Translations under genes and position numbers: made by a program | Shown here: positions 584-31,150 of the stretch, one piece after another | How positions within the stretch are numbered: position 1 is the stretch's first letter | How the letters are laid out: each line of letters begins with the position of its first letter | Assembly (NCBI GenBank): GCA_043822785.1 | Contig: JBDRBN010000132.1 | Location: 1 to 31,313 of the forward strand | DNA: 31,313 nucleotides | Reading direction: 5' to 3' | From: Pseudomonadota bacterium | Lineage (GTDB): Bacteria > UBA10199 > 2-02-FULL-44-16 > JAAZCA01 | Notes under the pieces: generated by a model | The model's database searches: none | What the model was told of the DNA's origin: nothing | Seen by the model: the letters and a program-made list of their open reading frames with translations, nothing else

Positions 584-616
584 AGGGAATGGGGAATAGG
601 GTGTAGGGAATAGGGA
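584..616 (+). repeat. Heptamer tandem repeat (GGGAATA family), single purine-rich arm
   Basis: agggaat ggggaat agggtgt agggaat aggga; same family as 9565-9683. Confidence 0.8.
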
Positions 617-626
617 AAAAACTTCG

Positions 627-659
627 GCCGGTAAGCGAATGCGCTTACCGGCTTTTTTT
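627..659 (+). terminator. Intrinsic terminator
   Basis: Perfect 11-bp stem GCCGGTAAGCG-aatg-CGCTTACCGGC followed by T7. Confidence 0.85.
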
Positions 660-660
660 A

Positions 661-861
661 TCAAAGCGTTGCGGGCTCTACTTGTTCTACTGGAGCTTTG
701 CTTTTCTCGCCGGTCTCGCTGGTCTCGCCCAATTTCGTCCACTCCTCTTTTTTCCACAGATTATTCCGCCACAACAGAACATTGAGCGCAATGAAGGTAG
801 CTGTATTGTGCACACCTAATGCGATTTTTAAAAGAAATGATTTTATAGGTTTTAAATTCAT
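661..861 (-). CDS. Possible small hypothetical protein (66 aa)
   Basis: ATG-initiated ORF with a hydrophobic stretch, downstream of the aldolase. No clear RBS. The C-terminal part is encoded by 9-bp GCGAGAnnn repeats. Confidence 0.3.
   Translation of the reverse strand: MNLKPIKSFLLKIALGVHNTATFIALNVLLWRNNLWKKEEWTKLGETSETGEKSKAPVEQVEPATL
702..728 (-). repeat. 9-bp tandem repeat (GCGAGAnnn family)
   Basis: Three TCTCGC units at 9-bp period on the plus strand. Confidence 0.7.
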
Positions 862-873
862 AATGTACGTTTT

Positions 874-947
874 GTCATCGCGAGCCCCGCCAGGGGCGTG
901 GCGATCTCCTGGTTTTCATGAGATTGCTTCGCTTCGCTCGCAATGAC
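874..947. repeat. REP-like branched palindrome GTCATCGCGAG...CTCGCAATGAC, copy 1
   Basis: Terminal inverted repeat with internal hairpins. A second copy lies at 3403-3481. Confidence 0.85.
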
Positions 948-949
948 AA

Positions 950-1636
950 TCACTCAATCAAATCCAAAAGAGTTTGTGATATCTGCTGGCCAAGCGTTCT
1001 GGCCTGCTTTGTAAGCTTATGCAGCTGGGCCTTTGTGAGCGGCTCGATAGAATCCATAGAGCTCACAAGATACGCCACGTTTGCTATGTGTTCAAGATGC
1101 TCAAGCCTGTTGTATGCATCTTGCAAATCCTTGCCCAAGACCAATACGCCATGCCGCTGCAATAAGAACGCATTGTGTTTTTTAAGAAACGGAGCGAGCT
1201 CTTTGCACATCTCCACAGTGCCAGGTGTAGCATAGGGCACCGAAGGAACTGGACCTATGTATATGGCGAGCTCAGGCAAAAGCATTTCTGTAAGCGAGAT
1301 CCCGCCTAGCGAGCACGCAAGGCAGTAATGCGGATGCGCATGTATGGCTGCGTTTATATCTGGACGCACATGATATACCTCTCGATGCATAGCTATCTCT
1401 GAAGAAGGATGATCATTTGGATTGAGCGGCACGCCGTCAGCATTGCATGCTACGATCGAATCAGCATCCACTGCATCCTTTCGCGTGGAACCAGGTGTTA
1501 TGAGAAACCCGTCTTGTTCGCGCACCGATACATTGCCGCTGGTAGCCACAAGATAGCCGTGCTCATAAAGCCTGTGGCATACATCAGCTATGGCCTCGCG
1601 ATTGTTCTTCTTCCACTTGTGCGCATCCATATTCAT
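950..1636 (-). CDS. Class II aldolase/adducin family protein (FucA/MtnB-like)
   Basis: Motifs SGNVS, ITPG, PSSEIAMH, HAHP and QRHG (Zn ligands). ATG at 1636 overlaps the upstream TGA. Confidence 0.9.
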   Translation of the reverse strand: MNMDAHKWKKNNREAIADVCHRLYEHGYLVATSGNVSVREQDGFLITPGSTRKDAVDADSIVACNADGVPLNPNDHPSSEIAMHREVYHVRPDINAAIHAHPHYCLACSLGGISLTEMLLPELAIYIGPVPSVPYATPGTVEMCKELAPFLKKHNAFLLQRHGVLVLGKDLQDAYNRLEHLEHIANVAYLVSSMDSIEPLTKAQLHKLTKQARTLGQQISQTLLDLIE

Positions 1637-2667
1637 CAAACAGTTCCTATCTCTTCTACCTGTTCGATCATGCCCTTGTCATCAAAGACCTTGCGCCTGT
1701 CGTGCGCACCCATGAACAAAAGCCCAAGCGAAATCCAAAACGCAGCGCGCAGCCTCTTTGCGATTTGAATGGTGATGCCGATAGACGGATCAAGGTGCAA
1801 AAGATATAGCACGCCGCTGAACGCGCCTTCCATTACCCCAAAGGCCCCTGGTATGAATGCGAATACAGCCATGACCATAGGCGCCAAGGCTGCAAGCATG
1901 AGCGCAGCAAAGATCGAAAACTCATCGCTCACCACACGGCCTATGGCATAGATCTCAACCACGCCCAATAGTCTGCCAAAGATATGGCAGGCAAGAGCTA
2001 CGAGAAAGCCGCGATGGTTCTGATTATAGAAGTCCACGATATGACTATCCAGCTCCATGATGCGTTTGACCGTACGCTCAGAGAACTCTTTCTTTATGCC
2101 GATCCTTTTGCAGAAGTTGAGCAAGAGGCCGAACAAACCGCGCCTCTGATGCACGAGAAGAAATCCCATGAAACCGCATGCTATCACCAGCACTATGGGA
2201 ACGCCGTAAGTGATGTTTGCTGAAAGCTCATCGAATTTTAGAAACGCCACTATGATGCCCAGAAGAATGGTTACTAGTATAGCAATGCTCTGCAGGGTAC
2301 GATCCACCACTACCGAAGCTGCGCCTTCTGAGACAGGAAAGTTCTTCTTGAGAAGATAGATCCGCATGGGATCGCCGCCTATGAAGTTGGCAGGCGTGAG
2401 AGTGTTTACGGTTTCGCCTGAGATCTTGATGCGAAACAGCTCGAAGAACCCAATTCCATCGCTTAGGCGATTGAGAAAGATCATCCACGCTATCGTATAT
2501 GAAACGTAGCCGAGCCCGCTTATGCACAGGATGGGTGCAAACCGCCACCCAAGGGCCCTGATGTTATCAACGATCGTATTCACGCCGACCTTGCGAATCA
2601 AAAGCATAAGCAATACAGCGCCAATGATGAGGAAAAAGAAGCGTAAGTGTCTTGTTAGTTTTTTCAT
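1636..2667 (-). CDS. UPF0104 / lysylphosphatidylglycerol synthase TM-domain (flippase-like) membrane protein
   Basis: Multi-TM protein with motifs NTLTPANFIGGDPMR, SVVVDR and IPGAFGVMEG typical of the family. Confidence 0.85.
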   Translation of the reverse strand: MKKLTRHLRFFFLIIGAVLLMLLIRKVGVNTIVDNIRALGWRFAPILCISGLGYVSYTIAWMIFLNRLSDGIGFFELFRIKISGETVNTLTPANFIGGDPMRIYLLKKNFPVSEGAASVVVDRTLQSIAILVTILLGIIVAFLKFDELSANITYGVPIVLVIACGFMGFLLVHQRRGLFGLLLNFCKRIGIKKEFSERTVKRIMELDSHIVDFYNQNHRGFLVALACHIFGRLLGVVEIYAIGRVVSDEFSIFAALMLAALAPMVMAVFAFIPGAFGVMEGAFSGVLYLLHLDPSIGITIQIAKRLRAAFWISLGLLFMGAHDRRKVFDDKGMIEQVEEIGTV

Positions 2668-3402: not shown

Positions 3403-3481
3403 GTCATCGCGAGCCCGCGTGAGCGGGCGTGGCGATCTCCATGACTTCGGGGATTGCTTCGGGCTGTGCCCTCGCAATGAC
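3403..3481. repeat. REP-like branched palindrome, copy 2
   Basis: GTCATCGCGAG...CGTGGCGATCTCC...GATTGCTTCG...CTCGCAATGAC, conserved with 874-947. Confidence 0.85.
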
Positions 3482-5598: not shown

Positions 5599-5625
5599 CG
5601 TTGCTTGCGTTGCTGGCTTTGCTGG
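5599..5625 (+). repeat. 9-bp tandem repeat (CGTTGCTGG-type)
   Basis: cgttgcttg cgttgctgg ctttgctgg just upstream of the radical SAM start. Confidence 0.55.
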
Positions 5626-6629: not shown

Positions 6630-6800
6630 GCGGCTAACTACTTACGGCTAACGGCTGACAGCTGACAGCTAACGGCTAACGGCAATAACAGGTATTATGA
6701 GCTGTTTGCCGTAAGCGAGTGTAACGAGCGAGCCGTAAGTGAGCAAAGCGAACGAGCTGTTTGCTGTAAGCGAACGAAGTGAGCGAGCTCCTAAGCTGTT
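6630..6800. repeat. Composite heptamer inverted array (GCTAACG/GCTGACA) with nested GCGAGCGAAGCGAGC-like units
   Basis: Left arm ggctaac/agctgac units. Right arm gccgtaa/gctgttt units interrupted by three related ~17-bp inserts. Related copy at 10345-10429. Confidence 0.8.
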
Positions 6801-6899: not shown

Positions 6900-7115
6900 A
6901 TGAAAAAGTTTCTAGCGGTACTCGTAGTACTAGGTCTTTGCGGGCTGTATTGGTATGGCTGTCAGAAGAAAGAGGCACCGACAACTGGCGAGGGTGCAGA
7001 ATCAGCAATAACTGAACCGGCACCAGAAGTAATACCGCCTCCACCGCCGCCACCACCACCACCACCTCCGCCAGCTGCAGAAGGTGAAGGCGAAGGTGAA
7101 ACAGAAGCACAGTAA
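6900..7115 (+). CDS. Small putative lipoprotein with a 13-residue polyproline tract
   Basis: Strong RBS GGAGG, signal-like MKK plus hydrophobic core plus YGC, mixed Pro codons, followed by a terminator. Confidence 0.8.
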   Translation: MKKFLAVLVVLGLCGLYWYGCQKKEAPTTGEGAESAITEPAPEVIPPPPPPPPPPPPPAAEGEGEGETEAQ

Positions 7116-9402: not shown

Positions 9403-9423
9403 GATGTCGTATTTTCTCCTGTG

Positions 9424-9462: not shown

Positions 9463-9487
9463 TAAAAATGCTTCAGCATTTCTATTG

Positions 9488-9560: not shown

Positions 9561-9564
9561 TTAA

Positions 9565-9683
9565 CTGCAGGGAATAGGGGATAGGGAATAGAGTGTAGGG
9601 AAAAAGCTTGAAGTAAATGCTAGGGATAGTCATTGCAGATGGTTTTTCCCTATTCCCTTATCCCTACCCCCTATTCCCTGTAG
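9565..9683. repeat. Heptamer inverted array (GGGAATA / TATTCCC)
   Basis: Purine arm 9565-9605 and complementary arm 9643-9683 fill the spacer between the two tRNAs. Confidence 0.85.
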
Positions 9684-9686
9684 TTC

Positions 9687-10045: not shown

Positions 10046-10119
10046 CAGAAGCTAGAAGCTAGAGACCAGAAGCTAGAAATTAGGTTTTCTGACTTCTAGC
10101 ATCTAACTTCTGACTTCTA
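10046..10119. repeat. Heptamer inverted array (AGAAGCT / ACTTCTG family)
   Basis: cagaagc tagaagc tagagac cagaagc tagaaat ... ttctgac ttctagc atctaac ttctgac; overlaps the rpoZ stop. Confidence 0.85.
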
Positions 10120-10344: not shown

Positions 10345-10429
10345 GCGGCTAACGGCTTACAACTAACGGCTAAGAACAAGAGCCGTAAGCGAACAAAGTG
10401 AGCGAGCTGTTTGCCGTCGGCCGTAAGCC
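10345..10429. repeat. Heptamer inverted array (GCTAACG family) with one nested insert
   Basis: Shares gagccgtaag, gtgagcgagct and gagctgtttgccgt segments with 6630-6800. Confidence 0.8.
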
Positions 10430-12467: not shown

Positions 12468-12545
12468 GCGAGACAGGCGAGAAATGCGAGACACGCGAGA
12501 AAGGTTGACTGGTCTCGCTTTTCTCGCCGATCTCGCTTGTCTCGC
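12468..12545. repeat. 9-bp inverted array (GCGAGAnnn x4 / nnnTCTCGC x4)
   Basis: Four units on each arm, followed by a T-rich stretch; may double as a terminator. Confidence 0.88.
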
Positions 12546-12585
12546 ATTATTGGTTTTTTTCGTTTTCTCTTGTTTTTCTACAGTG

Positions 12586-12614: not shown

Positions 12615-13607
12615 ATGAGAGGCGGAATTCGCCAATATTACTGGGTTATTGACCTGGTCGGAATATTTCTTTGTGCTTTTTTTCTGGCCAAGTTGACAAG
12701 CGTGTATTTGGGCAAGGCTATGGAGGTAAAGCGTTCCGTAGCTGTGCTTAAGACATCTGAATTGGCAGCAGAAGAGCTGTCGCGCCCCAGCCTTACAGAA
12801 TATAGCGTTATCTTAGATCGCGACATATTTGATTCAACACCACCTGCCGAAAAAGGGGAAAGTGTAGAAGAAGAGAGTGAAGCTGCAGAAAAGCGCGCAA
12901 AGGCCGGAGAGGCAGTTCTCACAAACCTTAACGTACAGGTTATGGGTGTGCTCGTGGTAGGAGATGGCAAAGATAAGCGCTCCACAGCCACCATCGTTAG
13001 CTCTGGCGCTTCACCGACGGCACCGACAAAGGGAGCAAAGGGAGCAGCAGCTTCTTCAGGAGCTGCGGTCTATGCTGTTGGCGATGAGGAGAGTTTTGCA
13101 CCGAACACAGAGCTTGTGCGCATACAGCCTGATCGAATTGAATTTCTGCATAGCGGTAGACTTGAGTATGCAGAGGTATTGTCAGAAGAGGGATTAAATA
13201 TCTTTGCACCGCCAGCGCGTGAGCCGTTGGCTATGGTTCCCTCCACAGAGGAGCCTGCTGGAAAAGAGACGATGATCAGGCCGGAAGGGGCTGGCAGGTT
13301 TACAGTGGATAAGCGCGAGGTTGAGGATGCAATACAGAATCTAGATCGCCTCTATACTGAAATTCGCGCGGTTCCAAATTTTGCTGGTGGTAAAGTTTCA
13401 GGCATGAAGATTCTTTCAGTCAAAGGCGGTTCGCTTTTTGCAAAACTCGGGCTTCGCAGGGGAGATGTGTTACAAAAGATAAATGGCATGGAGCTCGATG
13501 TGAAGCGAGGCTTTGAGATATTCAACACATTGAAAGAAGAGTCCAGCATAACGCTGGATCTGATAAGGCAGGGCCAGCCCACAACGCTTGAATATGAAAT
13601 ACGGTGA
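12615..13607 (+). CDS. gspC: Type II secretion protein C (PDZ-containing)
   Basis: N-terminal TM, HR domain, C-terminal PDZ (LGLRRGDVLQKING); first gene of the operon. Confidence 0.9.
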   Translation: MRGGIRQYYWVIDLVGIFLCAFFLAKLTSVYLGKAMEVKRSVAVLKTSELAAEELSRPSLTEYSVILDRDIFDSTPPAEKGESVEEESEAAEKRAKAGEAVLTNLNVQVMGVLVVGDGKDKRSTATIVSSGASPTAPTKGAKGAAASSGAAVYAVGDEESFAPNTELVRIQPDRIEFLHSGRLEYAEVLSEEGLNIFAPPAREPLAMVPSTEEPAGKETMIRPEGAGRFTVDKREVEDAIQNLDRLYTEIRAVPNFAGGKVSGMKILSVKGGSLFAKLGLRRGDVLQKINGMELDVKRGFEIFNTLKEESSITLDLIRQGQPTTLEYEIR

Positions 13608-13687
13608 CCAGTAACCAGTAACCAGTAACTAGTGACCAGTGTTTGCTGGTTACTAATTACTGGTCACTGGTCACTGGTTACTGGTTA
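13604..13687. repeat. Heptamer inverted array (AGTAACC / GGTTACT)
   Basis: gtgacca gtaacca gtaacca gtaacta gtgacca ... ctggtca ctggtca ctggtta ctggtta; starts at the gspC TGA and ends at the gspD RBS. Confidence 0.9.
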
Positions 13688-16060: not shown

Positions 16061-16146
16061 CAGAGGCCAGAAGCTAGAAATCAGAAGTTAGAAAATCTGT
16101 ATTCTAACTTCTATCTTCTAACCTCTAACTTCTAACTTCTAACTTC
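16061..16146. repeat. Heptamer inverted array (AGAAGTT / TTCTAAC)
   Basis: Fills the gspD-gspE spacer; right arm is ttctaac-type units repeated six times. Confidence 0.88.
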
Positions 16147-17854: not shown

Positions 17855-17862
17855 ATTATATA

Positions 17863-17897
17863 GCGAGAAATGCGAGACAGGCGAGAAAAGCAAGAAA
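17863..17897 (+). repeat. 9-bp tandem repeat, single arm
   Basis: gcgagaaat gcgagacag gcgagaaaa gcaagaaa. Confidence 0.75.
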
Positions 17898-19156: not shown

Positions 19157-19227
19157 TGCGAGACAGGCGAAAAATGCGAGACAGGCGAGATCGGTGAACC
19201 TTTCTCGCCGGCCTGGCTGGTCTCGCA
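19157..19227. repeat. 9-bp inverted array
   Basis: GCGAGA-type units x4, loop, TCTCGC-type units x3. Confidence 0.8.
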
Positions 19228-19794: not shown

Positions 19795-19869
19795 GCGAGA
19801 AAAGCGAGAAACGCCAGCAACGCGAGAAACGCAAAAACAGATTTGCGCATATGTTGCTGGCGTTTTTTT
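19795..19869 (+). terminator. 9-bp repeat arm merged with a terminator-like hairpin after gspG
   Basis: AAACGCCAGCAAC (19809-19821) is complementary to GTTGCTGGCGTTT (19853-19865), with a T run to 19869. Confidence 0.6.
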
Positions 19870-20559: not shown

Positions 20560-20630
20560 ACTAGTGATTAGTAATTAGTGACAAGTGATTGGCAACTGCA
20601 TTTACTAATCACTGATTACTAATCACGAGT
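20560..20630. repeat. Heptamer inverted array (AGTGATT / AATCACT)
   Basis: Arms around loop GGCAACTGCATTT; core matches 23337-23366 in reverse complement. Confidence 0.88.
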
Positions 20631-21945: not shown

Positions 21946-21979
21946 GCGAGAAAGGCGAGACAAGCGAGACAAGCGAGAA
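21946..21979 (+). repeat. 9-bp tandem repeat, single arm
   Basis: gcgagaaag gcgagacaa gcgagacaa gcgagaa fills the gspJ-gspK spacer. Confidence 0.8.
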
Positions 21980-23278
21980 ATGCATTTTATGAGATTGATC
22001 AGAAATAAAAAGGGCGTAGCTTTGATGCTGGTGTTGGCAGCCATCTCAGTGCTCACCGCTGTGGGCGTTGAGTTTGCATACAATACTAGCATCTATTACA
22101 ATCTTGCTCAGAATGAGCTTGACCGCCTTAAGGCCTATTACCTGGCAAAGTCTGCATTCAACTTCATGCAGCTGGAACTTAAATTCGATAAGCTGTTTAA
22201 AGAAACAGTGCAGAGTCAGAATTTAGGACAATACCTAGGCGGTAATGCGCAGCTTCCGCTTTGCCAACAATTTCCTCTGTCCACCGGGCTTATAAGAACG
22301 GTATTCATGGAGGGAGGGCTGGAAGGCCTTATGGGCAAGGAGGGTGGCGAAGAGGTTCCTGAAGCCGAAGTGGCAGAAGAAGGGATTGAGGACTTGCGAA
22401 AGGGTACGTCCATTTCCCAGGAGAAAGGGGCAGCGGATTTTCTTCAGTTCGACGGCGACTTTGATGGCGAATGTGTGGACGAGAGTACAAAAATAGATCT
22501 AAATGGCTTCTATGGCCTATCTCTATCGCCCAGTCCGGAGGGAACTCCGAGCCAGTTTGATCAATACAAGCAATTTATCTTTCGTTTTCTCTCACAGCCT
22601 AGGTTTAAGCTTTTATTTGAGAAGGCTGATGTGAGGGTTCCAGACGTTGCAAACAATATCGGCGATTGGGTTGATGACAATAGCGAGATGAACGATTTTG
22701 ACGGTCGGACAGGTGGTGCAGAAACAGCGCTCTATCAAAAGGATGAAGCTCCATATGAAGTTCGCAATAGCAAACTCATCACGCTTCTTGAGACATACCT
22801 GATCGATGGCGTGGTGGACACATGGTTTGAACCCATGATGGCGTACTTTACGATATACGGCGACAGCAAGATCAATGTCTGTACAGCAAGCGAAGAGGTG
22901 TTGGAGGGGCTTATTCGACGTTACGTTGATTCTACGCCAGATCTTCCGCCCCTTCGCCTTGAAGACCCCGAGGAGATGGGGCGCCTTACGACTGCTGTGT
23001 TAGAGGCTTGTGGTCAGGGAAATTCTGGCTCTCAGCTCAAACAGGACATTAATGCTGCTTTAAGTGCTGTGATAGGCAGTATAGCTGGTGGGCAACAAAC
23101 CGCTACCACATCAGGCTCCACAGGAGGATTTGCTGAATATGTGAGCACAGATAGTCGCTACTTTACGCTCAAGCTAGCAGGCCAGGTGGCTGATATCACA
23201 GTGCGTATCAAGGCGGTCCTTAATGTGACTGAGAGTGACCCAACCAAATGGAAGCTGCTATATTGGAGGGTTTATTGA
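21980..23278 (+). CDS. gspK: Minor pseudopilin K
   Basis: G|VALMLVL without Glu5, DESTKIDLN, DWVD, KINV.TA motifs. Confidence 0.9.
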   Translation: MHFMRLIRNKKGVALMLVLAAISVLTAVGVEFAYNTSIYYNLAQNELDRLKAYYLAKSAFNFMQLELKFDKLFKETVQSQNLGQYLGGNAQLPLCQQFPLSTGLIRTVFMEGGLEGLMGKEGGEEVPEAEVAEEGIEDLRKGTSISQEKGAADFLQFDGDFDGECVDESTKIDLNGFYGLSLSPSPEGTPSQFDQYKQFIFRFLSQPRFKLLFEKADVRVPDVANNIGDWVDDNSEMNDFDGRTGGAETALYQKDEAPYEVRNSKLITLLETYLIDGVVDTWFEPMMAYFTIYGDSKINVCTASEEVLEGLIRRYVDSTPDLPPLRLEDPEEMGRLTTAVLEACGQGNSGSQLKQDINAALSAVIGSIAGGQQTATTSGSTGGFAEYVSTDSRYFTLKLAGQVADITVRIKAVLNVTESDPTKWKLLYWRVY

Positions 23279-23288
23279 GATTGGGACT

Positions 23289-23315
23289 TTTACATAAAAC
23301 TTTGGGTGTGATAAT
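23289..23315 (+). promoter_or_regulatory. Possible internal promoter for gspLMN
   Basis: TGtGATAAT extended -10 with TTTACA upstream (15-bp spacing, suboptimal). Confidence 0.35.
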
Positions 23316-23401
23316 AGTGATTAGTGACTAGTAATTAGTGATTAGTAAAAGCAGTTGCCAATCACTGGTTACTGGTTACTGGTTACTGGTTACTGATCAC
23401 G
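23315..23401. repeat. Heptamer inverted array (AGTGATT / GGTTACT)
   Basis: Left tagtgat-type units; right ctggtta x4; loop AAAAGCAGTTGCC. Confidence 0.9.
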
Positions 23402-23410
23402 GGTTTCATT

Positions 23411-25033: not shown

Positions 25034-25625
25034 GATGGGCCCACTCAATCTCAAGCAGCTTAAGCTTGAGAATATCTATAACGCCTACTTTGGCATGAGC
25101 CCGAGGGAGCAGACGTTTGCTCTAGTGGGCGCTGTGGTGGTCTTGGTGCTGGTAGTTGTTTTGCCTGTAGTGGTTGCATCCAGTAGGATTAGCCGGTTGG
25201 AAGAGGATGTTGTACAAGGAAAACGTCAATTTCGAGATGTGATGAGGGCGATAGAATCTTATAATGGACGAAAGACAGAGCTTTCCAGACTTCAACAAAC
25301 CCTTGCTGGCGGGTATGACTCCTCACTATCTACCACGATAGAGTCGCTTGCAGAAAAGAACAACATGAAGGATCAAATCGATTCGCTCAAAGCTAAAGTG
25401 ACGGCGCCATCTGATCTCTTTGAAGAATCTGCTGTGGACGTGAGGCTAAGGCATGTGGAGTTAAAACCCTTGATAGATTTCATGTATGCCATTGAGAACG
25501 ATCCAGAAAAGGCATTGCGCATAAAGACGCTCTCCATAAAACCGCGTTTCGATGAGAAGAAACTCGATATAACATTGACAGTCTCCACTTTCAGATTTCT
25601 TGAGGGGGCTGTGGAAGGTCTCTGA
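25023..25625 (+). CDS. gspM: Type II secretion protein M
   Basis: MSPREQ followed by TM, coiled coil and ferredoxin-like domain; operon position. Confidence 0.85.
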   Translation: MAFKMGPLNLKQLKLENIYNAYFGMSPREQTFALVGAVVVLVLVVVLPVVVASSRISRLEEDVVQGKRQFRDVMRAIESYNGRKTELSRLQQTLAGGYDSSLSTTIESLAEKNNMKDQIDSLKAKVTAPSDLFEESAVDVRLRHVELKPLIDFMYAIENDPEKALRIKTLSIKPRFDEKKLDITLTVSTFRFLEGAVEGL

Positions 25626-26536
25626 TGTCGCGTTTGATCAGATATATCGCTTATATAGCGCTTTTCTTCGCGTGTTTTGCGATCTTCTTATATTGGGTGT
25701 TTCCCTACGATGTTCTTAAAGATCGCATACTCAATGATGTAGAGAGCCAGCTTGGCAAGGGGCTGCAGGTCTCAGCAGATCGTCTCGAACCATATTGGTT
25801 TTCAGGCATCGATATAAAAAATCTTAGGATAGAGGGGGTTGGAGAGCACGGCATAGTTGATCTTCTGAAGTTCAGTCGCGTGCGTGCCCGCGCGTCTCTC
25901 GTGCCACTTATTTTTGGCAGCATACGTTTAAAATTCGGATTGGATATAGGAAAGGGAGAGCTTTCTGGTTTTGCCAAGGTGGGCGAGGACACAATATCTT
26001 TGGATTTGGATATAGACGATCTAAATTTGTCGGATTTTGCATTCATTCAGGAGCGGACGGGGCTTAAGGTGATGAGCAAGATCGATGGCAACGTGGAGTT
26101 GGAAATTAATCGGCAACAGCCAGCCCGAAGCGCAGGCAGCATGCAGCTCACATTTGCCAATTTGGGCATTGGCGCTTCAGAACTCAAGGTAGGAGATCTA
26201 GCTCTTGAGATGCCTGATCTGGTATTAGCAAAAGGACGAGATTCGCAAATAAAACTTACGCTGAGTAAAGGCGCAGCTACCTTTGAAAAATTTAATTTAG
26301 CAGAAGGGGATCTTTTGGTCGATCTCAAGGGCAAGATGTTTCTATCCAGCAAATTTGCCAACTATCGTCTAAATCTCAGGGGAAAGTTCAGCACTTCACA
26401 AAAGCTAAACGAAGCACTTCCGTTTCTGTTCATAGTGGATTCGCAGAAACAGGAAGATGGCAGCTATCCGCTCATCATCACAGGCAGGATCTCACGCCCA
26501 TCGATCAAGATCGGCACATTCACGTTACCGCTATGA
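25625..26536 (+). CDS. gspN: Type II secretion protein N (deltaproteobacterial type)
   Basis: TM followed by FPY, beta-rich body, C-terminal G...P; TGATG coupling to gspM. Confidence 0.85.
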   Translation: MSRLIRYIAYIALFFACFAIFLYWVFPYDVLKDRILNDVESQLGKGLQVSADRLEPYWFSGIDIKNLRIEGVGEHGIVDLLKFSRVRARASLVPLIFGSIRLKFGLDIGKGELSGFAKVGEDTISLDLDIDDLNLSDFAFIQERTGLKVMSKIDGNVELEINRQQPARSAGSMQLTFANLGIGASELKVGDLALEMPDLVLAKGRDSQIKLTLSKGAATFEKFNLAEGDLLVDLKGKMFLSSKFANYRLNLRGKFSTSQKLNEALPFLFIVDSQKQEDGSYPLIITGRISRPSIKIGTFTLPL

Positions 26537-26550
26537 ACCCAAAACAAAGA

Positions 26551-26625
26551 CGGATGGTGGATGATGGACAAGAAACCGACGTGCTGAGGATTTACTGGTC
26601 ACTGGTTACTAATCACTAGTCACTG
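26551..26625. repeat. Two non-complementary heptamer arms between convergent genes
   Basis: ggatggt ggatgat ggac on plus after gspN; AGTGACT/AGTAACC units on minus including the hydE TAG. Confidence 0.65.
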
Positions 26626-27728
26626 ATCTTAAAATGTGGCGCATCTCCCCACTGGTTGAAGCCTACCCTTTCGCCTATGGCCTCAACCCTCCTGATAAGA
26701 CAGTCGCCACAGGTTTTTGAGTCCTCATCGACACAAGGTTTATTGTCGTAGAGCTTGTAGTAGGACCTGTATCTCGTATCCGTGATGTTAGGCATTATGA
26801 TATTCGCGCCGGCCTTAAGGCCCATTTCCCTGCCGAAATCGTCTAAAACCTGAAGGGCTGTGGTCGAGGCGATGTTTACATCCTTAAGATAAATCCTTGT
26901 AGTGGCGATCATCTTTAGACAGAGCTTAAAGAGCGATATCTTCTGGTCTTCAAAATCGCTCTTGGCGCAAGCCAAAGGTGTGTCTGAATGTGGAATGAAA
27001 GGGCCCATGCCGATCATATCAATGTCCATGTGTTTGAAGAAAATGATATCGTCAGCCAAATCTTCGATGCTCTGCCCGGGCAGGCCGATCATCACGCCGC
27101 AGCCAACCTGATAACCTATGGATTTTAATGCTAGAAGCGATGAAAACCTTGTTTCAAAAGTTTGTTCTTTAGCATGCAGCTTTTGATAGAGCCCCTTGTT
27201 GGAAGTCTCAATCCTGAGCAGATATCTGTGTGCTCCTGCTTCAAACCACCTTCTGTAAGTCTCAATGCTTTGCTCGCCAAGCGACAGCGTGATCCCCAAC
27301 TTGCCAGAGGAAATCATTTTGATCTGCAAGACCAGGCGTTCGACAAAGGAGATAAATTCCTTGTCTGTGCGCTCGCCGGATTGCAGTACTATGGAACCGT
27401 ACTGTTGCTCATGACATCGCTTGGCTGCAAATACGATTTCCTCCTCGCTCATCGAATATCTTTTGATCTTATCGTTGCTCTTCCTGATTCCGCAATAGAA
27501 ACAATCATTTTTGCATTTATTGCTGAACTCGACGATGCCGCGTAGATAGACTTTATCTCCGACGTAACGCCTTTTCACTCCATATGCTGTTTTATAAAGT
27601 CTATGAAGCTCAGACTCCTTCATTATCGAGAGAAGTTCGATGAGGTCATCTCGGGTGAGGATTTCCTCGTGGGTCTTTACGAATATCGATGATCGGAGAT
27701 TGGGCATCGGATTTGGTTTATCGGTCAT
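26616..27728 (-). CDS. hydE: [FeFe]-hydrogenase maturase HydE-like radical SAM protein
   Basis: LRGIVEFSNKCKNDCFYCGIR, YLLRIET, GMGPFIPH.DTPL, GANIIMPN, Y.LY..K.C-x7-C-x2-C. Start at ATG 27728 is inferred. Confidence 0.85.
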   Translation of the reverse strand: MTDKPNPMPNLRSSIFVKTHEEILTRDDLIELLSIMKESELHRLYKTAYGVKRRYVGDKVYLRGIVEFSNKCKNDCFYCGIRKSNDKIKRYSMSEEEIVFAAKRCHEQQYGSIVLQSGERTDKEFISFVERLVLQIKMISSGKLGITLSLGEQSIETYRRWFEAGAHRYLLRIETSNKGLYQKLHAKEQTFETRFSSLLALKSIGYQVGCGVMIGLPGQSIEDLADDIIFFKHMDIDMIGMGPFIPHSDTPLACAKSDFEDQKISLFKLCLKMIATTRIYLKDVNIASTTALQVLDDFGREMGLKAGANIIMPNITDTRYRSYYKLYDNKPCVDEDSKTCGDCLIRRVEAIGERVGFNQWGDAPHFKISD

Positions 27729-28041
27729 CGTGAGACTTTTCTTCATATAAGACCTCTCCAGGTCTTATAAAGCCAAGCTCAGAGCGTATAATCATCTCAA
27801 GATTTTCAGGATTTTTGAGGACCTGTCGTTCTTGCGAGAGCTTGTCTATCTCTTCATTTATTCTTGCTCGTTCAGTCATGAGACGGTGCTTCATTTCAAT
27901 GAGGCGTCTGAACTGATATATGCCTTGGTCACCAAGAACCAAAAACCAAAGGAGTGCTACTATGGCTGTGATCACAGCAATCCTGATGGGCGTGATGACC
28001 TGAAGGAGATGAACTCTTATCTGTGATATCGAATTTTTCAT
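27718..28041 (-). CDS. Septum formation initiator family (FtsB/DivIC-like)
   Basis: TM-GDQG, coiled coil, IRSELGFIRPGE. Confidence 0.88.
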   Translation of the reverse strand: MKNSISQIRVHLLQVITPIRIAVITAIVALLWFLVLGDQGIYQFRRLIEMKHRLMTERARINEEIDKLSQERQVLKNPENLEMIIRSELGFIRPGEVLYEEKSHDDR

Positions 28042-28073
28042 CTCAATGATGCCCGAGGTTTGCTGCGGGCTTT

Positions 28074-28117
28074 CCTTTACCCTCTCCCTTGAGGGTAGAG
28101 GGTAGGGTGAGAGGGTG
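28074..28117 (-). repeat. REP-like CCCTCTCACCCTACCCTCT...GGGAGAGGG hairpin
   Basis: Minus strand CACCCTCTCACCCTACCCTCTACCC-TCAA-GGGAGAGGG just after the ruvB stop. Confidence 0.7.
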
Positions 28118-28122
28118 ATCCA

Positions 28123-29157
28123 CTATTTGAAAAATTCGCTCTGATCAGGAGCCTTGTACTCGAGGCCGAAGTGTTCATAGGCCAGCTTCGTAGCTACACG
28201 TCCTCTTGACGTTCGGTTAAGGTAGCCACATTGGATGAGATAGGGTTCGTACACGTCTTCTATCGTATCCTTCTCCTCGTTTATAGCGGACGATATGGTA
28301 TCGATGCCAACTGGCCCTCCTTCGAATTTCTGAATTATCGTCATGAGGATGGTCCGATCCATATGATCAAAACCTTTTTCGTCTACGTCAAGGAGGGCCA
28401 GCCCTCCTTGCGCGACGTTCTTATCGATCTTTCCTTCGGCCTTCACATCTGCGAAGTCACGCACTCTGCGAAGCAGGCGATTTGCGATGCGCGGAGTTCC
28501 GCGGGAGCGCCTTGCTATCTCGGTGGCGCCATCAGCATCTATGGTTACGCTGAGTATGTTTGCTGACCGTTCGACGATTTTCTTGATGTCCGGAGAAGGA
28601 TAAAAGTCGAGCCTTGCGGTTACGCCAAACCTATCGCGCAGAGGAGAGGTCAAAAGGCCTGTGCGTGTCGTCGCTCCAACGAGAGTAAAGCGCGGCAAAT
28701 CGAGTTTTATAGTCTTTGCCGATGGGCCTTGTCCTATGAGGATATCAAGCTGAAAATCCTCCATAGCTGGATAGAGTATCTCTTCAACGACGTGGTTGAG
28801 CCTATGGATCTCGTCTATGAACAGCACAGATCGATCTTGAAGGTTTGTGAGTATAGCTGCAAGATCGCCAGGGCGCTCTATCACCGGCCCTGATGTGGTT
28901 GTGATATTTACCCCTAGTTCGCGAGCTATTATGTATGCGAGAGTTGTTTTACCCAAACCAGGAGGGCCGGAAAAAAGCACGTGGTCTAGGTTGTCTCCTC
29001 TTGCCTTGGCTGCATCTATAAAGATGCTAAGGCGTTCCTTTACGCGCATTTGACCTATGTATTCTTCAAGAGTTTGCGGACGCAGGCCTGCTTCGGCTTT
29101 ACGCTCGTCAGGGGACAGCTGTTTTGCCAAGATAGTTTCATTGCGCTCTGTATTCAT
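28123..29157 (-). CDS. ruvB: Holliday junction branch migration helicase
   Basis: [41 protein letters not shown] overlap with ruvA. Confidence 0.98.
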
Positions 29158-29747
29158 GCTTTGCATAGCTCCTTAAGCCCTGCTTTTACTGCTTCTTCTA
29201 TTGTAACCTCTTTGTCGATGCCAGCCCTTATCATGACGTTTTCAGCTACTGCTTTTGTATAACCCAGATGGACGAGCGCCGAGATAGCTTCTTCGCGGAT
29301 GGATGCTACACTATTTGCAGGACTTCCTCCTGAGCCTTTCAGATTATCTGGAAGCTTGCCCTTTAGTTCGATTATCATGCGCTGCGCTGTCTTATTGCCA
29401 ATTCCAGGTATGGTTGACAGACGACTGGCATCTGCTGCGCTGATGGTTTCGATGAGATCAGAGGGGGGAAGGCCTGAGAGCACTGCTAGTGCTATCTTGG
29501 GTCCGATACCAGAAATGGCGATGAGTTTGAGAAAGATCTGACGCTCCTCTGGTGAAGTAAATCCATAAAGCACTAGCTGATCCTCGCGCACATATGTGTG
29601 AATGAACATTTTTACGGCGTTGCCAACTTCAGGCAGAGTGCTGAATGTTGAAAACGACACGTTTACGCCATAACCCACGCCACCTACATCGACCACGCAA
29701 TGAGTAGGTTCTTTATGAAGCAATATACCGCTTAGGTGAACTATCAT
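29154..29747 (-). CDS. ruvA: Holliday junction DNA-binding protein
   Basis: GVGY, VRED..LYGF, HhH motifs GIGPK and GIGNK. Confidence 0.97.
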
Positions 29748-29754
29748 AAAAAAT

Positions 29755-29821
29755 AGTGACCAGTGATCAGTTCTTATGGTTTTACGTTTCTAGCGTGTCT
29801 CGCCTTTCTCGCTTGTCTCGC
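29755..29821. repeat. Chimeric spacer: 9-bp arm plus 7-bp arm
   Basis: On minus: GCGAGA units after the ruvC stop, then actgatc actggtc acta before the ruvA ATG. Confidence 0.7.
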
Positions 29822-29823
29822 AA

Positions 29824-30321
29824 CTACACTTGATGCTTCTTAATTTTATTCCTTAGCGCTGTACTATTGCAGTGGCATATTGCCACTGCCAATGCATCGG
29901 AGGCGTCTTCACAAGCTGTCTCAGGTAGCCTAAGAATTGCGCGCACCATGCTTTGTATCTGTTCTTTGCTTGCGCGTCCAGAACCTGTAATAGCTATCTT
30001 TACCTGAGCTGGCGTATATTCCCCGATTTCTATGCCAGAGCTGGCTGCTGCCAGCATAGCCACTCCGCGCACATGTCCTAAGATGAGTGAACTCCTAACG
30101 TTTTTAGCAACAAACACATTTTCGATGGCTACGGCATTGGGGCAAAAACGCTCTATTAATTCTGTAAGCTCATCGTAGATGATTGAGAGTCTTTTGGGGA
30201 ACGAAAGTTTTGCTCTGGGGGCGATGCTGCCGTTATCGATGTGGCGCATGACCCCGCCTTTGTTTTCAAGGATGCCGTATCCTGTGATGTTGCTGCCTGG
30301 GTCAATGCCTAAGACTCGCAT
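29824..30321 (-). CDS. ruvC: Crossover junction endodeoxyribonuclease
   Basis: LGIDPG, AIENVF, G.GRASKEQ, DASDALAVA. Confidence 0.97.
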   Translation of the reverse strand: MRVLGIDPGSNITGYGILENKGGVMRHIDNGSIAPRAKLSFPKRLSIIYDELTELIERFCPNAVAIENVFVAKNVRSSLILGHVRGVAMLAAASSGIEIGEYTPAQVKIAITGSGRASKEQIQSMVRAILRLPETACEDASDALAVAICHCNSTALRNKIKKHQV

Positions 30322-30333
30322 TTTTTATTCAAA

Positions 30334-31077
30334 TTACGCCAGCTTCTCCATAGTTTTGGAATCTATGTCGAAGTTGGCGTATGTGTTTTGTACGTCTTCG
30401 TGTTCATCAAGTGCGTCCATGAGTTTGAGCATCTTCTCTGCGCCAGCTTGATCGAGCTTTACAGTGGTCTGAGGCACCATGCTTAGGCTAGCCTCTATGT
30501 ATTCGAGCCCTTTCTCATTGCAGGCTGTCTTTACCGACTCGAATGTGCATGGATCTGTGATGACTGAGAGCATATCCTCTTCAGTCTTGATATCCTTTGC
30601 TCCAGCCTCGATGACAGTGTTCATGAGTATTTCTTCGCCAATGTCCTTATCGAATGTGAGCACACCTTGCTTTGTAAAGATCCATGCTACGCAACCTGCT
30701 TCACCTAGGTTTCCGCCCATCTTAGAGAACAGATGTCTGAGTTCAGAAACAGTGCGGTTGCGGTTGTCAGTGAGCGTTTCAACCATAACCGCAACTCCTC
30801 CCGGGCCATAGCCTTCGAAGGTTACTTCTTCGTAGCTGATGCCCTGGATCTCGCCTGTACCTTTTTTGATTGCCCTGGTGATATTGTCATTGGGCATATT
30901 GGCTGTACGCGCCTTGTCGACAACTGCGCGAAGCCTGGAGTTGCCATCCGGATCACCGCCCCCGATCCGTGCGGCAACAGTGATCTCTTTGATGAGTTTC
31001 GAAAAGAGTTTGCCCCGTTTGGCATCTGCTGCCCCCTTTTTGTGTTTGATGGATGACCATTTACTGTGACCCGACAT
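30334..31077 (-). CDS. yebC: YebC/PmpR family protein
   Basis: MSGHSKW..IKHKK, EGYGPGG, TDNRNRT; AGGAG RBS. Confidence 0.97.
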
Positions 31078-31098
31078 GCCTACTCCTTGTCTGCATGA

Positions 31099-31150
31099 CC
31101 AGAAGCCAGAAAATCTAACCTCTAGCTTCTGCTTTTATCTAACTTCTGCT
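31099..31150. repeat. Degenerate AGAAGC/CTTCT heptamer array
   Basis: ccagaag ccagaaa atctaac ctctagc ttctgct ... ; same family as 10046 and 16061. Confidence 0.65.

Follow-up and report, generated by a model that had tools for sequence, protein, structure and literature searches.

In the 23S IVS of Coxiella (PMC4990558), a terminal stem of 28 bp has been shown experimentally to be cleaved at its middle by RNase III, and tandem GACAGAT heptamers, variable in number among strains, precede the S23p ORF. GGGAATC repeats (Rehm 2015, PMC4692102) are described as lying on the sense strand within 50 bp of the stop codon or on the antisense strand upstream, with a preference for four units. The arrays analysed here follow the same positional rule and four-unit preference as these GGGAATC repeats, and the TAACTGA repeats (MacGregor 2015) are consistent with the rule found here for orphan arms. 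A literature search found no paper describing the repeat-armed hairpin design. With a probability of roughly 0.6, the arrays are read as paired or orphaned arms belonging to palindromic insertions of the rRNA-IVS type, of which the ORF-bearing Coxiella IVS with its heptamers is an example.

The window, i.e. the whole 31,313-nt stretch of DNA analysed, gave 45 TRF rows and, after merging and filtering, 22 strict arrays, all 22 with a period of 7 or 9; by eye, about 18 of its 26 spacers bear arrays. The features are listed below, z referring to folding against shuffled sequences.

584..617, plus strand: orphan 5'-form arm, AGGGAAT x4.9, starting 5 nt past the stop at 579; no fold (TRF).
705..729, plus strand: short 3'-form 9-mer array, TCTCGCCGG x2.8 (TRF, sequence).
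5599..5625, plus strand: orphan 3'-form 9-mer arm, CGTTGCTGG x3, pyrimidine-rich, in a divergent spacer, 28 nt upstream of a radical-SAM gene start at 5653 (plus) (TRF).
6631..6683, plus strand: GCTAACG-family arm, CGGCTAA x7.6, with a partly complementary GCCGTAAGCGA region downstream (TRF, fold).
9569..9679, no strand: GGGAATA hairpin (AGGGAAT arm, loop, TTCCCTA arm) in the tRNA-Thr / tRNA-Leu spacer; folded over 9564-9684, -65.1 kcal/mol, z -8.2 (TRF, fold).
10047..10119, no strand: AGAAGCT / TTCTAAC hairpin, z -5.2 (TRF).
10346..10373, plus strand: GCTAACG-family array, CGGCTAA x4, upstream of a histidine-kinase gene (TRF, sequence).
12468..12550, no strand: 9-mer hairpin in the kinase gene / gspC spacer, GCGAGAnnn x4, loop, nnnTCTCGC x4, with 6-bp helices separated by 3x3 internal loops; -49.1 kcal/mol, z -7.4 (TRF, fold).
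13607..13687, no strand: AGTAACC / CTGGTTA hairpin between gspC and gspD, its first unit overlapping the gspC stop codon (13605-13607) and its 3' arm extending into the called gspD start region; z -9.9 (TRF).
16068..16146, no strand: AGAAGCT / TTCTAAC hairpin in the gspE-side spacer of gspD (gspD / gspE), 3' arm longer than 5' arm; z -3.5 (TRF).
17862..17897, plus strand: orphan 5'-form 9-mer arm, AGCGAGAAA x4, in the gspE / gspF spacer, starting 8 nt past the stop at 17854; no fold (TRF).
19158..19226, no strand: 9-mer hairpin 3' of gspF, z -2.9 (TRF).
19795..19868, plus strand: 9-mer arm 3' of gspG, GCCAGCAAC units pairing with GTTGCTGGC, then TTTTTTT, starting 10 nt past the stop at 19785; z -6.2 (TRF, sequence).
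20561..20630, no strand: AGTGATT / AATCACT hairpin in the gspH / gspI spacer, z -7.9 (sequence).
21946..21980, plus strand: orphan 5'-form 9-mer arm making up the entire 36-nt gspJ-gspK spacer, starting 3 nt past the stop at 21943 (TRF).
23315..23405, no strand: TAGTGAT / ACTGGTT hairpin in the gspK / gspL spacer, z -10.2 (TRF).
26594..26625, minus strand: orphan arm, purine-rich, its 5' form (GACCAGT) on the minus strand, overlapping the stop of a minus-strand radical-SAM gene at 26616 (TRF, sequence).
28075..28116, no strand: small CCCTCTC / GAGGGTA palindrome 3' of ruvB, a weak member; z -1.5 over 28075-28122 (TRF).
29755..29821, minus strand: chimeric ruvC-ruvA spacer with GCGAGAnnn and heptamer-family arms; on the coding (minus) strand, a purine-rich GCGAGAnnn 5'-form arm (29787-29821) at the ruvC stop (29824) is followed by a pyrimidine-rich ACTGATCACTGGTCACT 3'-form heptamer arm (29755-29775) before the ruvA start (29747, minus) (TRF, sequence).
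31098..31150, no strand: degenerate AGAAGCC / AGCTTCT palindrome upstream of yebC; z -1.8 over 31098-31165 (sequence).

Seven of the nine paired sites beat shuffles strongly (z -5.2 to -10.2, none of 200 shuffles being equal), and 16068..16146 and 19158..19226 did so more weakly. Folding at 28075-28122 and 31098-31165 was no better than that of shuffles, and single arms of the window did not fold. All the single arms listed in the earlier note (584, 17862, 19795, 21946, 26594, 29787, 5599 and 29755) were located.

Over the 2.3-Mb genome, whose assembly is 87% complete, 469 arrays were found, nearly all of period 7 or 9. At a TRF score of at least 40, the whole genome gave 173 rows of period 7 and 133 of period 9, with 1 row of period 8 and 5 of period 6, compared with none for any of these periods after dinucleotide shuffling; together with the window census, these counts establish the arrays as real. 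About seven unrelated families of units occur repeatedly, at as many as 129 loci; six named families hold 322 of the 469 arrays, the two largest being GCGAGAnnn (129 arrays) and GGAATTT (57). Arms of about 35 nt are the most common for periods 7 and 9 alike, and 83 of the 129 9-mer arrays have four units. Core positions of the units (AGT.A.C; GC.AG) are at least 98% invariant, variation being limited to two or three set positions, which simple neutral slippage does not explain and which counts against the IVS-type reading.

The arrays might instead be simple-sequence repeats of the host, generated on the spot by slippage of the polymerase and retained for regulation or structure, for example through G-quadruplex formation (Rehm 2015, PMC4692102) or binding of a translational regulator, S1, Csp or CsrA (MacGregor 2015), any cargo genes being incidental. 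Double and triple periods (14, 18 and 21) often outscore the base period in TRF, a signature of slippage, and at 13624 precisely one 7-nt unit is missing from a contig of a different groundwater sample (depth 2 of 4, hence weak). The invariant core with its few variable positions also fits a sequence-specific binder, and the rule and unit preference published for the GGGAATC repeats agree with this explanation as well. However, independent slippage does not predict one unit at up to 129 separate loci, and most families are not G-rich, so G-quadruplexes cannot be the general reason. With the junctions, rRNA inserts and cargo genes described below, this explanation is considered unlikely.

Arm order was fixed in GCGAGAnnn (49/49), AGTGACC (45/45), GGAATTT (41/41), GCTAACG (7/7) and GGGAATA (4/4), that of AGAAGCT being ambiguous (8 versus 6). 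Of 97 orphan arms located between co-directional genes, 77 showed their 5' form when read along the coding strand (p = 5e-9), and these started at a median of 2 nt past the stop codon (IQR -2 to 7); orphan-arm orientation tracked gene strand (Fisher p = 2e-8). The polarity is not an artefact of ORF calling, as arrays that were classed as coding have this orientation too and occupy the very 3' ends of ORFs. The shared architecture and polarity claimed in the earlier note, including a non-random orientation in a genome-wide catalogue, are therefore upheld. Its rule that the purine-rich arm follows the stop codon holds as a tendency but not strictly, with exceptions in the AAATTCC/GGAATTT family of this genome and, in the relative G001, the CGTCGTT/ACGAACG family, neither of which puts a purine-rich arm first. 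Polarity can be explained without a special mechanism, by the single arm order that each family keeps and by insertion into minimal spacers.

The earlier note had nevertheless suggested a dedicated generating or mobilising mechanism. An enzyme could, for example, add units in a templated or telomerase-like manner to both 3' ends of a break in a spacer before joining, so that the left arm would have the 5' form and the right arm would be its complement. Such an enzyme might be helped by the cargo protein; in DGRs, reverse transcriptases have Avd-like proteins as partners. Such an enzyme would agree with an arm order fixed in every clear family, with a length peak independent of period, with variation confined to set positions around the invariant core, with arms that are independent draws from one unit pool and not mutual copies, and with the many 9-mer hairpins whose arms join head to head at AACGTT, almost without a loop. 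On the other hand, paired-arm lengths are only modestly matched (Spearman 0.36), and at least seven unrelated families in one genome would require as many templates. No dedicated generating or mobilising enzyme was found in the genome, which also counts against the IVS-type reading, and the single RT has a DGR-like setting (by eye) away from the arrays. This suggestion was not supported and is judged quite improbable. Copying of REP/REPIN elements by RAYT (Y1 HUH) transposases is more improbable still. The genome is rich in palindromic repeats and has nine Y1_Tnp-like (Y1 transposase) genes, but none of the nine has a family tandem array within 500 nt, those showing flanking repeats each have their own short, non-tandem palindrome, and the arms, in contrast to near-identical REP copies, are tandem arrays whose degenerate units vary in number and order.

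REP elements in E. coli operons offer a comparison for stem-loops setting cistron expression, and the arrays could likewise be host-selected terminators, attenuators or 3'-exonuclease barriers that tune cistron ratios. Nearly every gsp-operon spacer holds an array and the stems are very stable. After gspG, the major pseudopilin gene, 9-mer units form a terminator-like stem with a T-run (19795..19868), and five relatives (G003, G004, G009, G013 and G017) have an unrelated stem there, followed by a clear T-run in three of the five (by eye). However, a consensus terminator scan of 9400-29390 gave 15 sites against 17.8 expected, none of them inside an array, and by eye a T-run directly follows only one window hairpin. 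Stem mismatches on the coding strand showed no wobble bias (G·U 183 versus A·C 177), and the nnn positions of mirrored 9-mer units (32 hairpins, 276 positions) had a complementarity of 0.59, compared with 0.61 when permuted and 0.57 in draws from the pool (z = 0.9). With neither a G·U excess nor co-variation of the arms, selection for RNA pairing is undetectable. Both results weigh against the RNA function raised in the earlier note and also against the IVS-type reading, and the lack of co-variation suits slippage. Divergent spacers, where transcription need not yield a hairpin, contain arrays at much the same frequency (17%) as co-directional spacers (18%), again counting against both. A role as host-selected terminators, attenuators or exonuclease barriers is also regarded as quite improbable.

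Comparison of orthologous gsp junctions revealed lengths of 0-17 nt in some relatives and of 70-144 nt, with other units, in others. The gspE-gspF junction measures 1-17 nt in six relatives, compared with 70 nt here, 123 in G001, 120 in G003 and 112 in G014, the units differing in each; at gspJ-gspK, the two genes overlap or are 0-14 nt apart in ten relatives, compared with a spacing of 36 nt in this genome and 90 nt in G001. The sequence was thus gained whole, indicating that the arrays are insertions and arguing against slippage in place. Their absence from the same junctions in close relatives implies that they are dispensable for operon function, contrary to host-selected stem-loops.

Hairpins with heptamer arms were also found inside the 23S rRNA genes of G001 and G003, at one helix tip near position 285 of the RF02541 model, which is a further point against host repeats arising by slippage. 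The G001 insert (122 nt) has the same unit family and arm order as a hairpin in its gsp operon.

Genes lying between the arms were also examined. All three TIGR02436 genes of the genome under study (G000) adjoin arrays and one lies exactly between matching arms. At G000:C22, a PF05635 gene (E = 4.9e-39) is flanked by an AGTAACC arm from the upstream stop and an ACTGGTC arm ending 4 nt before mlaD; the same junction holds same-family repeats without the gene in G007 and is tight in G005, G014 and G015, so filled and empty alleles exist here as at the gsp junctions, as the earlier note had anticipated. Complementary repeats flank 17 of 27 TIGR02436 loci in relatives, above the maximum of 103 control placements, which confirms the link that it had proposed and is difficult to reconcile with incidental cargo; the units include AGAAGCT, GGGAACA and GCAAGCAAG, from families that are gene-less in G000. 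Its proposed link to GxxExxY genes held in one relative of the same class, where inverted units flank three of four full-length genes (by eye), but not in the 87%-complete G000 assembly, where none was found. Across 30 relatives, the density of arrays and the number of TIGR02436 copies are positively correlated (Spearman 0.55, p = 0.0016, uncorrected for kinship).

Other observations speak against the IVS-type reading. G013 has 18.6 arrays per 100 kb and no TIGR02436 match, as slippage would allow, and G016 and G018 have 20 and 11 TIGR02436 copies with few arrays in the sample. No complete gene-bearing copy of GCGAGAnnn or GGAATTT was found in the 87%-complete assembly, and the closest pair of cargo proteins, L105 and L106, come with arms that are unrelated, so cargo and arms are not transferred together as a fixed unit. 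Hairpins without a gene may be empty sites, but they may just as well be miniature cassette derivatives or targets of cargo genes. The interpretation in the earlier note is thus partly supported, in its architecture, polarity, alleles and TIGR02436 link, and not in its enzyme or RNA selection.

Taken together, an element of the IVS type would consist of a 5' arm of about 33-37 nt (four to five degenerate 7-mers or four degenerate 9-mers), a loop and a 3' arm whose units come from the reverse-complement pool. The loop of the full-length form would carry a small cargo gene, coding for a 23S-rRNA-IVS protein of the four-helix-bundle type (TIGR02436/PF05635) or, as in one relative, for a GxxExxY protein of the PD-(D/E)XK type. 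Elements would have entered junctions originally only 0-17 nt long and would therefore abut the upstream stop codon. Each arm would then evolve separately as a tandem array by slippage, with its unit core invariant. Polarity would be a geometric by-product of the single arm order per family, so that, on either strand, the left gene border is next to a 5'-form arm and the right one next to a 3'-form arm, and orphan arms would retain the position of their source arm; the 3' arm is lost more often, probably owing to its overlap with the translation-initiation region of the next gene. Transcribed stems of 25-40 bp would be the kind of double-stranded RNA cut by RNase III, which the genome encodes, and such cleavage may make insertions into operons and rRNA tolerable, while some copies, e.g. 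the terminator-like stem after gspG, may have been co-opted. The link to hairpins carrying IVS genes offers a clue, open to testing, to a class of bacterial repeats that has long lacked an explanation.

The genome under study, G000, is a 2.30-Mb metagenome-assembled genome of 148 contigs and 47% G+C. The window encodes lipid-head-group enzymes, two radical-SAM proteins, a Na/Pi-PhoU transporter, tRNA-Thr, tRNA-Leu, a GAF histidine kinase and a complete type II secretion operon from gspC to gspN, together with ruvB, ruvA, ruvC and yebC; the two tRNAs are its only Rfam matches. TRF returned 45 repeat rows in the window, from which 22 arrays of period 7 or 9 were left once merged, spread by eye over about 18 of the 26 spacers. 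The repeat families and single arms described in the earlier note were all recovered, at the positions given there, by TRF and in the sequence itself, and the polarised palindromic tandem-repeat system that it had proposed proved real and striking in TRF, folding and orientation statistics. Seven of nine paired window sites folded with z values of -5.2 to -10.2, with 0 of 200 shuffles as good, and two further paired sites gave z values of -3.5 and -2.9. Two weak candidates and every orphan (unpaired) arm of the window folded no better than shuffles.

Some observations concern annotation and assembly. The longest-ORF start of gspD (TTG at 13643) falls within the 3' arm of a hairpin (13643-13687), and the real start is probably further downstream. 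At 6900-7110 on the plus strand there is an uncalled small ORF whose product has a signal peptide of lipoprotein type (MKKFLAVLVVLGLCGLYWYGC), followed by a stretch of prolines and a tail rich in Glu and Gly; it is this coding repeat, and not an array of the system, that TRF reports as rows of period 3 and 9 at 7034-7073. Apparent joints linking distant arrays of the same family in read assemblies look like assembly-graph links through repeats. In practice, such arrays break assemblies and misdirect start-codon calls, that of gspD being an example.

At a TRF score of at least 40, G000 contains 173 rows of period 7 and 133 of period 9, compared with 0 and 0 in a dinucleotide-shuffled genome; periods 8 and 6 account for only 1 and 5 rows. 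The resulting catalogue holds 469 arrays (period 7: 296; period 9: 173), of which 322 belong to six named families and 147 lie outside them. The arrays occupy 17 kb, or 5.7% of non-coding DNA, and the share of spacers with an array is 18% among co-directional, 17% among divergent and 13% among convergent ones. Of 380 period-7 loci, 282 lie less than 50% within an ORF, and the enrichment of tandem heptamers in non-coding DNA that characterises heptamer SSRs is thus found in G000. A complementary partner was present at most 110 nt away for 217 of the 469 arrays versus 55 in the composition control.

Named array families of G000, with number of arrays and constancy of arm order
GCGAGAnnn: 129 arrays, the largest family, a 9-mer; order constant in 49/49 arms
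AGTGACC: 92 arrays; order constant, 45/45
GGAATTT: 57 arrays; AAATTCC arm first in 41/41
AGAAGCT: 23 arrays; order ambiguous, 8 vs 6
GCTAACG: 15 arrays; order constant, 7/7
GGGAATA: 6 arrays; order constant, 4/4

Synteny of the kinase-gsp operon extends to 12 relatives, drawn from the same family, order and class, and its orthologous junctions were compared between genomes. The contrast of filled and empty alleles anticipated in the earlier note was borne out there, a single junction being found in either state. Five more relatives have gspD>E spacers of 30-104 nt in which clear arrays are absent.

Spacer lengths at orthologous gsp junctions in G000 and relatives
gspE>F: 70 nt in G000 (9-mer arm); filled in G001 (123 nt, CGTCGTT/ACGAACG), G003 (120 nt, 8-mers) and G014 (112 nt, 8-mers); 1-17 nt in six relatives
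gspJ>K: 36 nt in G000; filled in G001 (90 nt); 0-14 nt or overlapping in ten relatives
gspD>E: 96 nt in G000; filled in G003 (100 nt); 3-22 nt in three relatives
gspK>L: 132 nt in G000; filled in G001 (121 nt), G003 (144 nt) and G013 (127 nt); 3-8 nt in two relatives

The arrays are insertions, and their arms abut the stop codon because they were inserted into spacers of nearly zero length. The same view accounts for their polarity. Since a palindrome is identical on both strands, a fixed arm order means no more than that the 5'-form (the unit version of the first arm) stands at the gene border on the left and the 3'-form at that on the right; the order is ambiguous for AGAAGCT because CTAG is self-complementary. 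Orphan arms in co-directional spacers show the 5'-form on the coding strand in 77 of 97 cases (p = 5e-9), the position near the stop in sense, or before the start in antisense, that is known from heptamer SSRs. Orphan 5'-form arms begin a median of 2 nt past the stop codon (IQR -2 to 7), and the 20 reversed orphan arms are closer to the next start. Their orientation tracks gene strand (Fisher p = 2e-8), and does so within single contigs that have genes on both strands as well. Arrays classed as coding are confined to the final few percent of their ORFs and point in that same forward direction, so the polarity rule is not an artefact of ORF calling. Polarity is consequently a geometric result of fixed arm order and insertion into minimal spacers. 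As for the purine-rich first arm claimed earlier, it holds as a tendency (GCGAGAnnn, GGGAATA and AGAAGCT) and fails as a rule, as seen with AAATTCC and with CGTCGTT/ACGAACG in G001. A possible selection of 5'-form units for providing stops in every reading frame was also considered; by eye, a stop codon lies within the unit in 13 of 19 5'-forms versus 8 of 19 3'-forms, and in none of the 9-mers.

Arm lengths peak at 30-34 nt in heptamer arrays and at 35-39 nt in 9-mer arrays, and the unit numbers of the 129 9-mer arrays (four in 83, three in 25 and five in 12) do not follow a geometric decay. The lengths of paired arms are modestly matched (Spearman 0.36; median difference of 5 nt vs 8.1 nt when permuted). 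Unit variation in the AGTRAYC and 9-mer families is limited to two or three positions, with positions 1, 2, 3 and 5 of AGTRAYC units (n=434) conserved at 99% or more and G1, C2 and A4 of 9-mer units (n=466) at 98-99%, some of these positions having served for phase setting, which was done per array only and not per unit. Complementarity of the mirrored nnn positions in 9-mers showed no excess (0.59, vs 0.61 in within-arm permutation and 0.57 in pool draws), and no wobble bias was found among coding-strand stem mismatches (183 G·U vs 177 A·C). These null results indicate that the arms are independent arrays drawn from one unit pool and not mutual copies; selection for RNA pairing beyond the unit core is undetectable, and the nulls argue against it without excluding it. 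Double and triple TRF periods point to slippage within arms, as does a 7-nt deletion at 13624 seen in one contig of another sample at depth 2 of 4 (four DNA runs, short contigs of low depth). When compared with MITEs, unit number and order vary among the arms within a family, and some loops are common to several copies, in particular the AAAGAGG-type loops of the GGAATTT family.

For the dedicated generating or mobilising mechanism suggested in the earlier note, no enzyme emerged among the RT and Y1-transposase genes of G000. Nine Y1_Tnp (RAYT-like) genes are present (on contigs C94, C78, C73, C97, C26, C99, C54, C138 and C75), and none of the nine has a tandem array of the families within 500 nt. 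Several have short non-tandem palindromes of their own on either side, e.g. TACCAGTAGGAAGCTGATTCCTACTGGTA, GGTCACCCCTAGGGGTGACC and CTGTAGCGAAACGCTACAG, in a classical REPtron layout. The arrays resemble REP, BIME and REPIN sequences as abundant extragenic palindromes at gene ends within operons, but differ from REP and REPIN in having arms made of degenerate tandem arrays with independent unit order and cargo genes (small genes between the arms) in loops. Copying of the arrays as REP/REPIN by RAYT was consequently rejected, given the position of the nine Y1 genes and the different repeats that flank them. The single reverse transcriptase gene (C53:10501-11860), with a small ORF adjacent and GTTGTTG-rich repeats near, looks by eye like a diversity-generating retroelement; it is not near arrays, and was rejected as their mobiliser.

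Two other repeats were observed beside the arrays. A second, unrelated family in the window (880-949 and 3408-3480) consists of gene-end palindromes, CGCGAGCC..GGCGTGGCGATCTCC..GATTGCTTCG..CTCGCAATGA; a 9-mer hairpin on contig C19 has a REP-type palindrome pair nested in its loop, and this pair is of the CGCGAGCC kind. An element of about 200 nt, bounded by terminal inverted repeats, was seen immediately next to AAATTCC/GGAATTT hairpins and at the ends of many G000 contigs (e.g. C112:1-160, C116:1-160, C122:1-155, C133, C28, C16:24930-25120 and C27:28143-28240). Its ends read CACTG(C/T)TGT(C/T)GCGTTAGA ... TCTAACGC(A/G)ACA(A/G)CAGTGCA and it includes a second-family REP-type palindrome. Most likely this is a MITE present in many copies, which interrupts the assembly and may have the AAATTCC/GGAATTT hairpins as its targets.

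A consensus scan for intrinsic terminators over 9400-29390 gave 15 sites versus 17.8 expected, with 0 in arrays. The lone terminator-like stem built from an array and followed by a T-run lies, by eye, at 19806-19868, after the major pseudopilin gene gspG. A stem at gspG>H is also seen by eye in the relatives G003, G004, G009, G013 and G017 with unrelated sequences, and a clear T-run follows it in G000, G003, G009 and G017. Judged by eye, this stem is positionally conserved and attenuator- or terminator-like, and in G000 it is made of 9-mer units.

The earlier note had also proposed that the arrays may be empty sites of a small gene-cassette element, similar arrays flanking TIGR02436 and GxxExxY genes. 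The TIGR02436 part of this idea was supported. All three TIGR02436 genes of G000 adjoin arrays, and one of them (C22:18971-19294; PF05635, E = 4.9e-39) lies between matching arms. This C22 gene sits in an mla-type operon, where an AGTAACC arm starts at the stop of the preceding gene and an ACTGGTC arm stops 4 nt short of mlaD; the closest solved relative of its protein is 2GSC from Xanthomonas, deposited with five chains. At the equivalent junction, G007 has a gene-less AGAAGCT arm together with a GATCACT arm, G013 and G009 have different arrays, and G008 and G020 have different palindromes; in G005, G014 and G015 the junction is tight. Among the seven candidates for genes between distant matching arms in G000, the C22 cassette alone has a small gene in the loop; another is the C19 hairpin with its nested REP-type palindrome, and the remainder are ordinary genes between orphan arms of adjacent spacers.

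In the relatives, which have from 0 to 20 TIGR02436 matches each, flank complementarity at 17 of 27 inspected TIGR02436 loci exceeds the maximum of 103 control placements, with arm units of period 6, 7, 8 or 9. AGAAGCT, GGGAACA and GCAAGCAAG arms, of families that occur gene-less in G000, flank TIGR02436 genes there. Across the DNA sampled from 30 relatives, the density of arrays rises with TIGR02436 copy number (Spearman 0.55, p = 0.0016, kinship ignored), with median values of 0.85 arrays per 100 kb in the 10 relatives without TIGR02436 and 7.9 in the 20 with it; G013, G016 and G018 are clear exceptions to the trend. For GxxExxY (TIGR04256; PF13366, PD-(D/E)XK nuclease family), the proposal found support in one relative, G026, where inverted units flank 3 of 4 full-length copies by eye, and none in G000, in whose 87% complete assembly no such gene was found.

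Cargo-gene orientation relative to neighbours is mixed, according to crude ORF calls. The two cargo proteins closest to each other come from cassettes with unrelated arms, implying that the gene moves between hairpins or that arms turn over faster than the gene; the tree of 26 cargo proteins is for the most part poorly resolved, with 9 of 23 forks open. A TIGR02436 cassette directly 5' of the aspartokinase gene (start ..VVQKYGGTS) was observed in two relatives of different families, at locus L113 of G001 and locus L110 of G018, with unrelated arms (GGTACGTT vs TTAGACC). Either the junction is a hot spot or the cassette is old and its arms have turned over; the tree of the 26 proteins does not show the two loci to be orthologous. 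It was also observed that many TIGR02436 genes of the relatives form divergent pairs about 130-180 nt apart (e.g. G016:C31:7088-7842, G003:C3:919068-919793 and G009:C29:23701-24454), many copies having one in-frame stop, mostly TGA. Such copies possess a different upstream hairpin and lack tandem arms (loci L122 and L123), and they are a second subtype of the family.

Integron cassettes with attC likewise consist of a small promoter-less ORF and an imperfect palindrome that is variable in sequence and conserved in architecture. The present cassettes share the association of a small ORF with an imperfect palindrome of conserved architecture; unlike integron cassettes, they have arms on both sides of the ORF, and their sites are scattered in core operons and not lined up beside an integrase.

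The same hairpin type was found in ribosomal RNA genes. Both G001 and G003 have an insertion in 23S rRNA at one helix tip, around position 285 in the RF02541 model, and both inserts are heptamer-armed hairpins; that of G001 is 122 nt long and shares its TTCGTTC/GAACGAA units and its arm order with a hairpin of the G001 gsp operon. The assembly of G000 is without a 23S gene and the window hairpins are intergenic, so the helix-tip location of 23S intervening sequences (IVS) is not seen in it. In Coxiella, the 23S IVS is 428 nt long, with an S23p ORF, a 28-bp terminal stem that RNase III cuts at the middle, and tandem GACAGAT heptamers beside the ORF whose unit number depends on the strain, according to the accessible text of PMC4990558. 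As far as that text describes the IVS, the hairpins studied here share with it a long terminal inverted-repeat stem, evident from the partner counts and the window fold z values of -5 to -10, and a loop able to hold a PF05635/TIGR02436 gene, occupied at C22 and at the 17 loci of relatives. As in the described part of the Coxiella IVS, heptamers stand in the ORF-side arm and their number differs among strains, and both kinds of element are regarded as selfish. RNase III is encoded by G000 (rnc gene); its cleavage has been demonstrated for the IVS in the same accessible text, and for the window hairpins we infer it by analogy. Unlike IVS, the window copies lie between protein-coding or tRNA genes and not in rRNA, and the elements number hundreds per genome, in several unit families, mostly ORF-less and many of them one-armed.

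Comparable intergenic heptamer repeats are the STRR of cyanobacteria. The GGGAATC and GGGGA(C/T)T repeats of Xanthomonas and Nostoc are described, in the accessible text of Rehm et al. 2015 (PMC4692102), as non-coding tandem heptamers located near the stop on the sense strand, or antisense upstream of a start, with a preference for about four units, with number and sequence differing between close relatives, and with mention of inverted copies capable of stem-loops. As far as described there, the G000 arrays share the position rule and the four-unit preference, and the GGGAATA family is one base off GGGAATC. G-tracts are found in the GGGAATA family only (6 of 469 arrays) and in none of the GCGAGAnnn, AGTGACC, GGAATTT, AGAAGCT and GCTAACG families. 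Most families are therefore not G-rich, and quadruplex formation cannot be what unites them. Unlike the published heptamer SSRs, the largest family of G000 is a 9-mer, and that text draws no link of the repeats to cargo genes or IVS (PMC4692102). TAACTGA direct repeats of Beggiatoaceae, cyanobacteria and Bacteroidetes lie mostly just 5' of start codons, sometimes over the upstream stop, with 1 inverted set among 170 and the others direct, and were interpreted as a translational regulator site in the accessible text of MacGregor 2015 (PMC4679880). Rotating TAACTGA gives GATAACT, whose reverse complement AGTTATC occurs as a minor AGTRAYC unit in G000 (7 of 434). The placement and orientation of TAACTGA, as there described, match a 3'-form arm of G000, and no hairpin or cargo link is drawn in that text (PMC4679880). 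Thus, the polarity rule had already been published for heptamer repeats. Within the literature covered, with subscription journals outside it, no publication was found tying intergenic heptamer hairpins to PF05635/TIGR02436 or GxxExxY genes, Coxiella IVS heptamers excepted.

Taken together, these results make it fairly probable (roughly 60%) that the arrays are IVS-type, repeat-armed hairpin insertions, most of them gene-less or one-armed. Such hairpins would probably be tolerated because their stems are processed at the RNA level, with a step by RNase III suggested by analogy to the IVS, and may occasionally be co-opted, for instance as the terminator-like stem after gspG. It is further conceivable, if unlikely when the whole is taken jointly, that the repeat arms are recognition and homing sites of widespread, undescribed selfish mini-cassettes. 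The cargo, a pentamer-type four-helix-bundle protein or a PD-(D/E)XK nuclease, would then bind or cut the cores of the tandem units in same-family hairpins (as cruciform, single-stranded DNA or RNA), and the break would be repaired from a filled copy with the arms of about 35 nt as homology, whereby the gene would spread and leave gene-less hairpins and orphan arms behind.

Tandem heptamers have served strain typing for decades and are known in cyanobacteria, Xanthomonas, sulfur bacteria and many uncultured lineages. To our knowledge they have no accepted function, and the 23S IVS and S23p/PF05635 proteins are equally unexplained. G000 displays these repeats unusually clearly, with a fixed arm order, a constant arm length and insertions in otherwise tight operon junctions, and its several unrelated unit families, including a 9-mer, imply that neither unit sequence nor quadruplex formation is the common factor. 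With the same type of hairpin found around a PF05635 gene and in the rRNA genes of relatives, two old puzzles merge into a single testable question, namely whether cargo proteins or RNase III act on repeat-armed hairpins. If the arms do serve as homing sites, the STRR, the heptamer excesses of Xanthomonas, Beggiatoa, Bacteroidetes and many uncultured phyla, and the rRNA IVS would all be footprints of one type of element.
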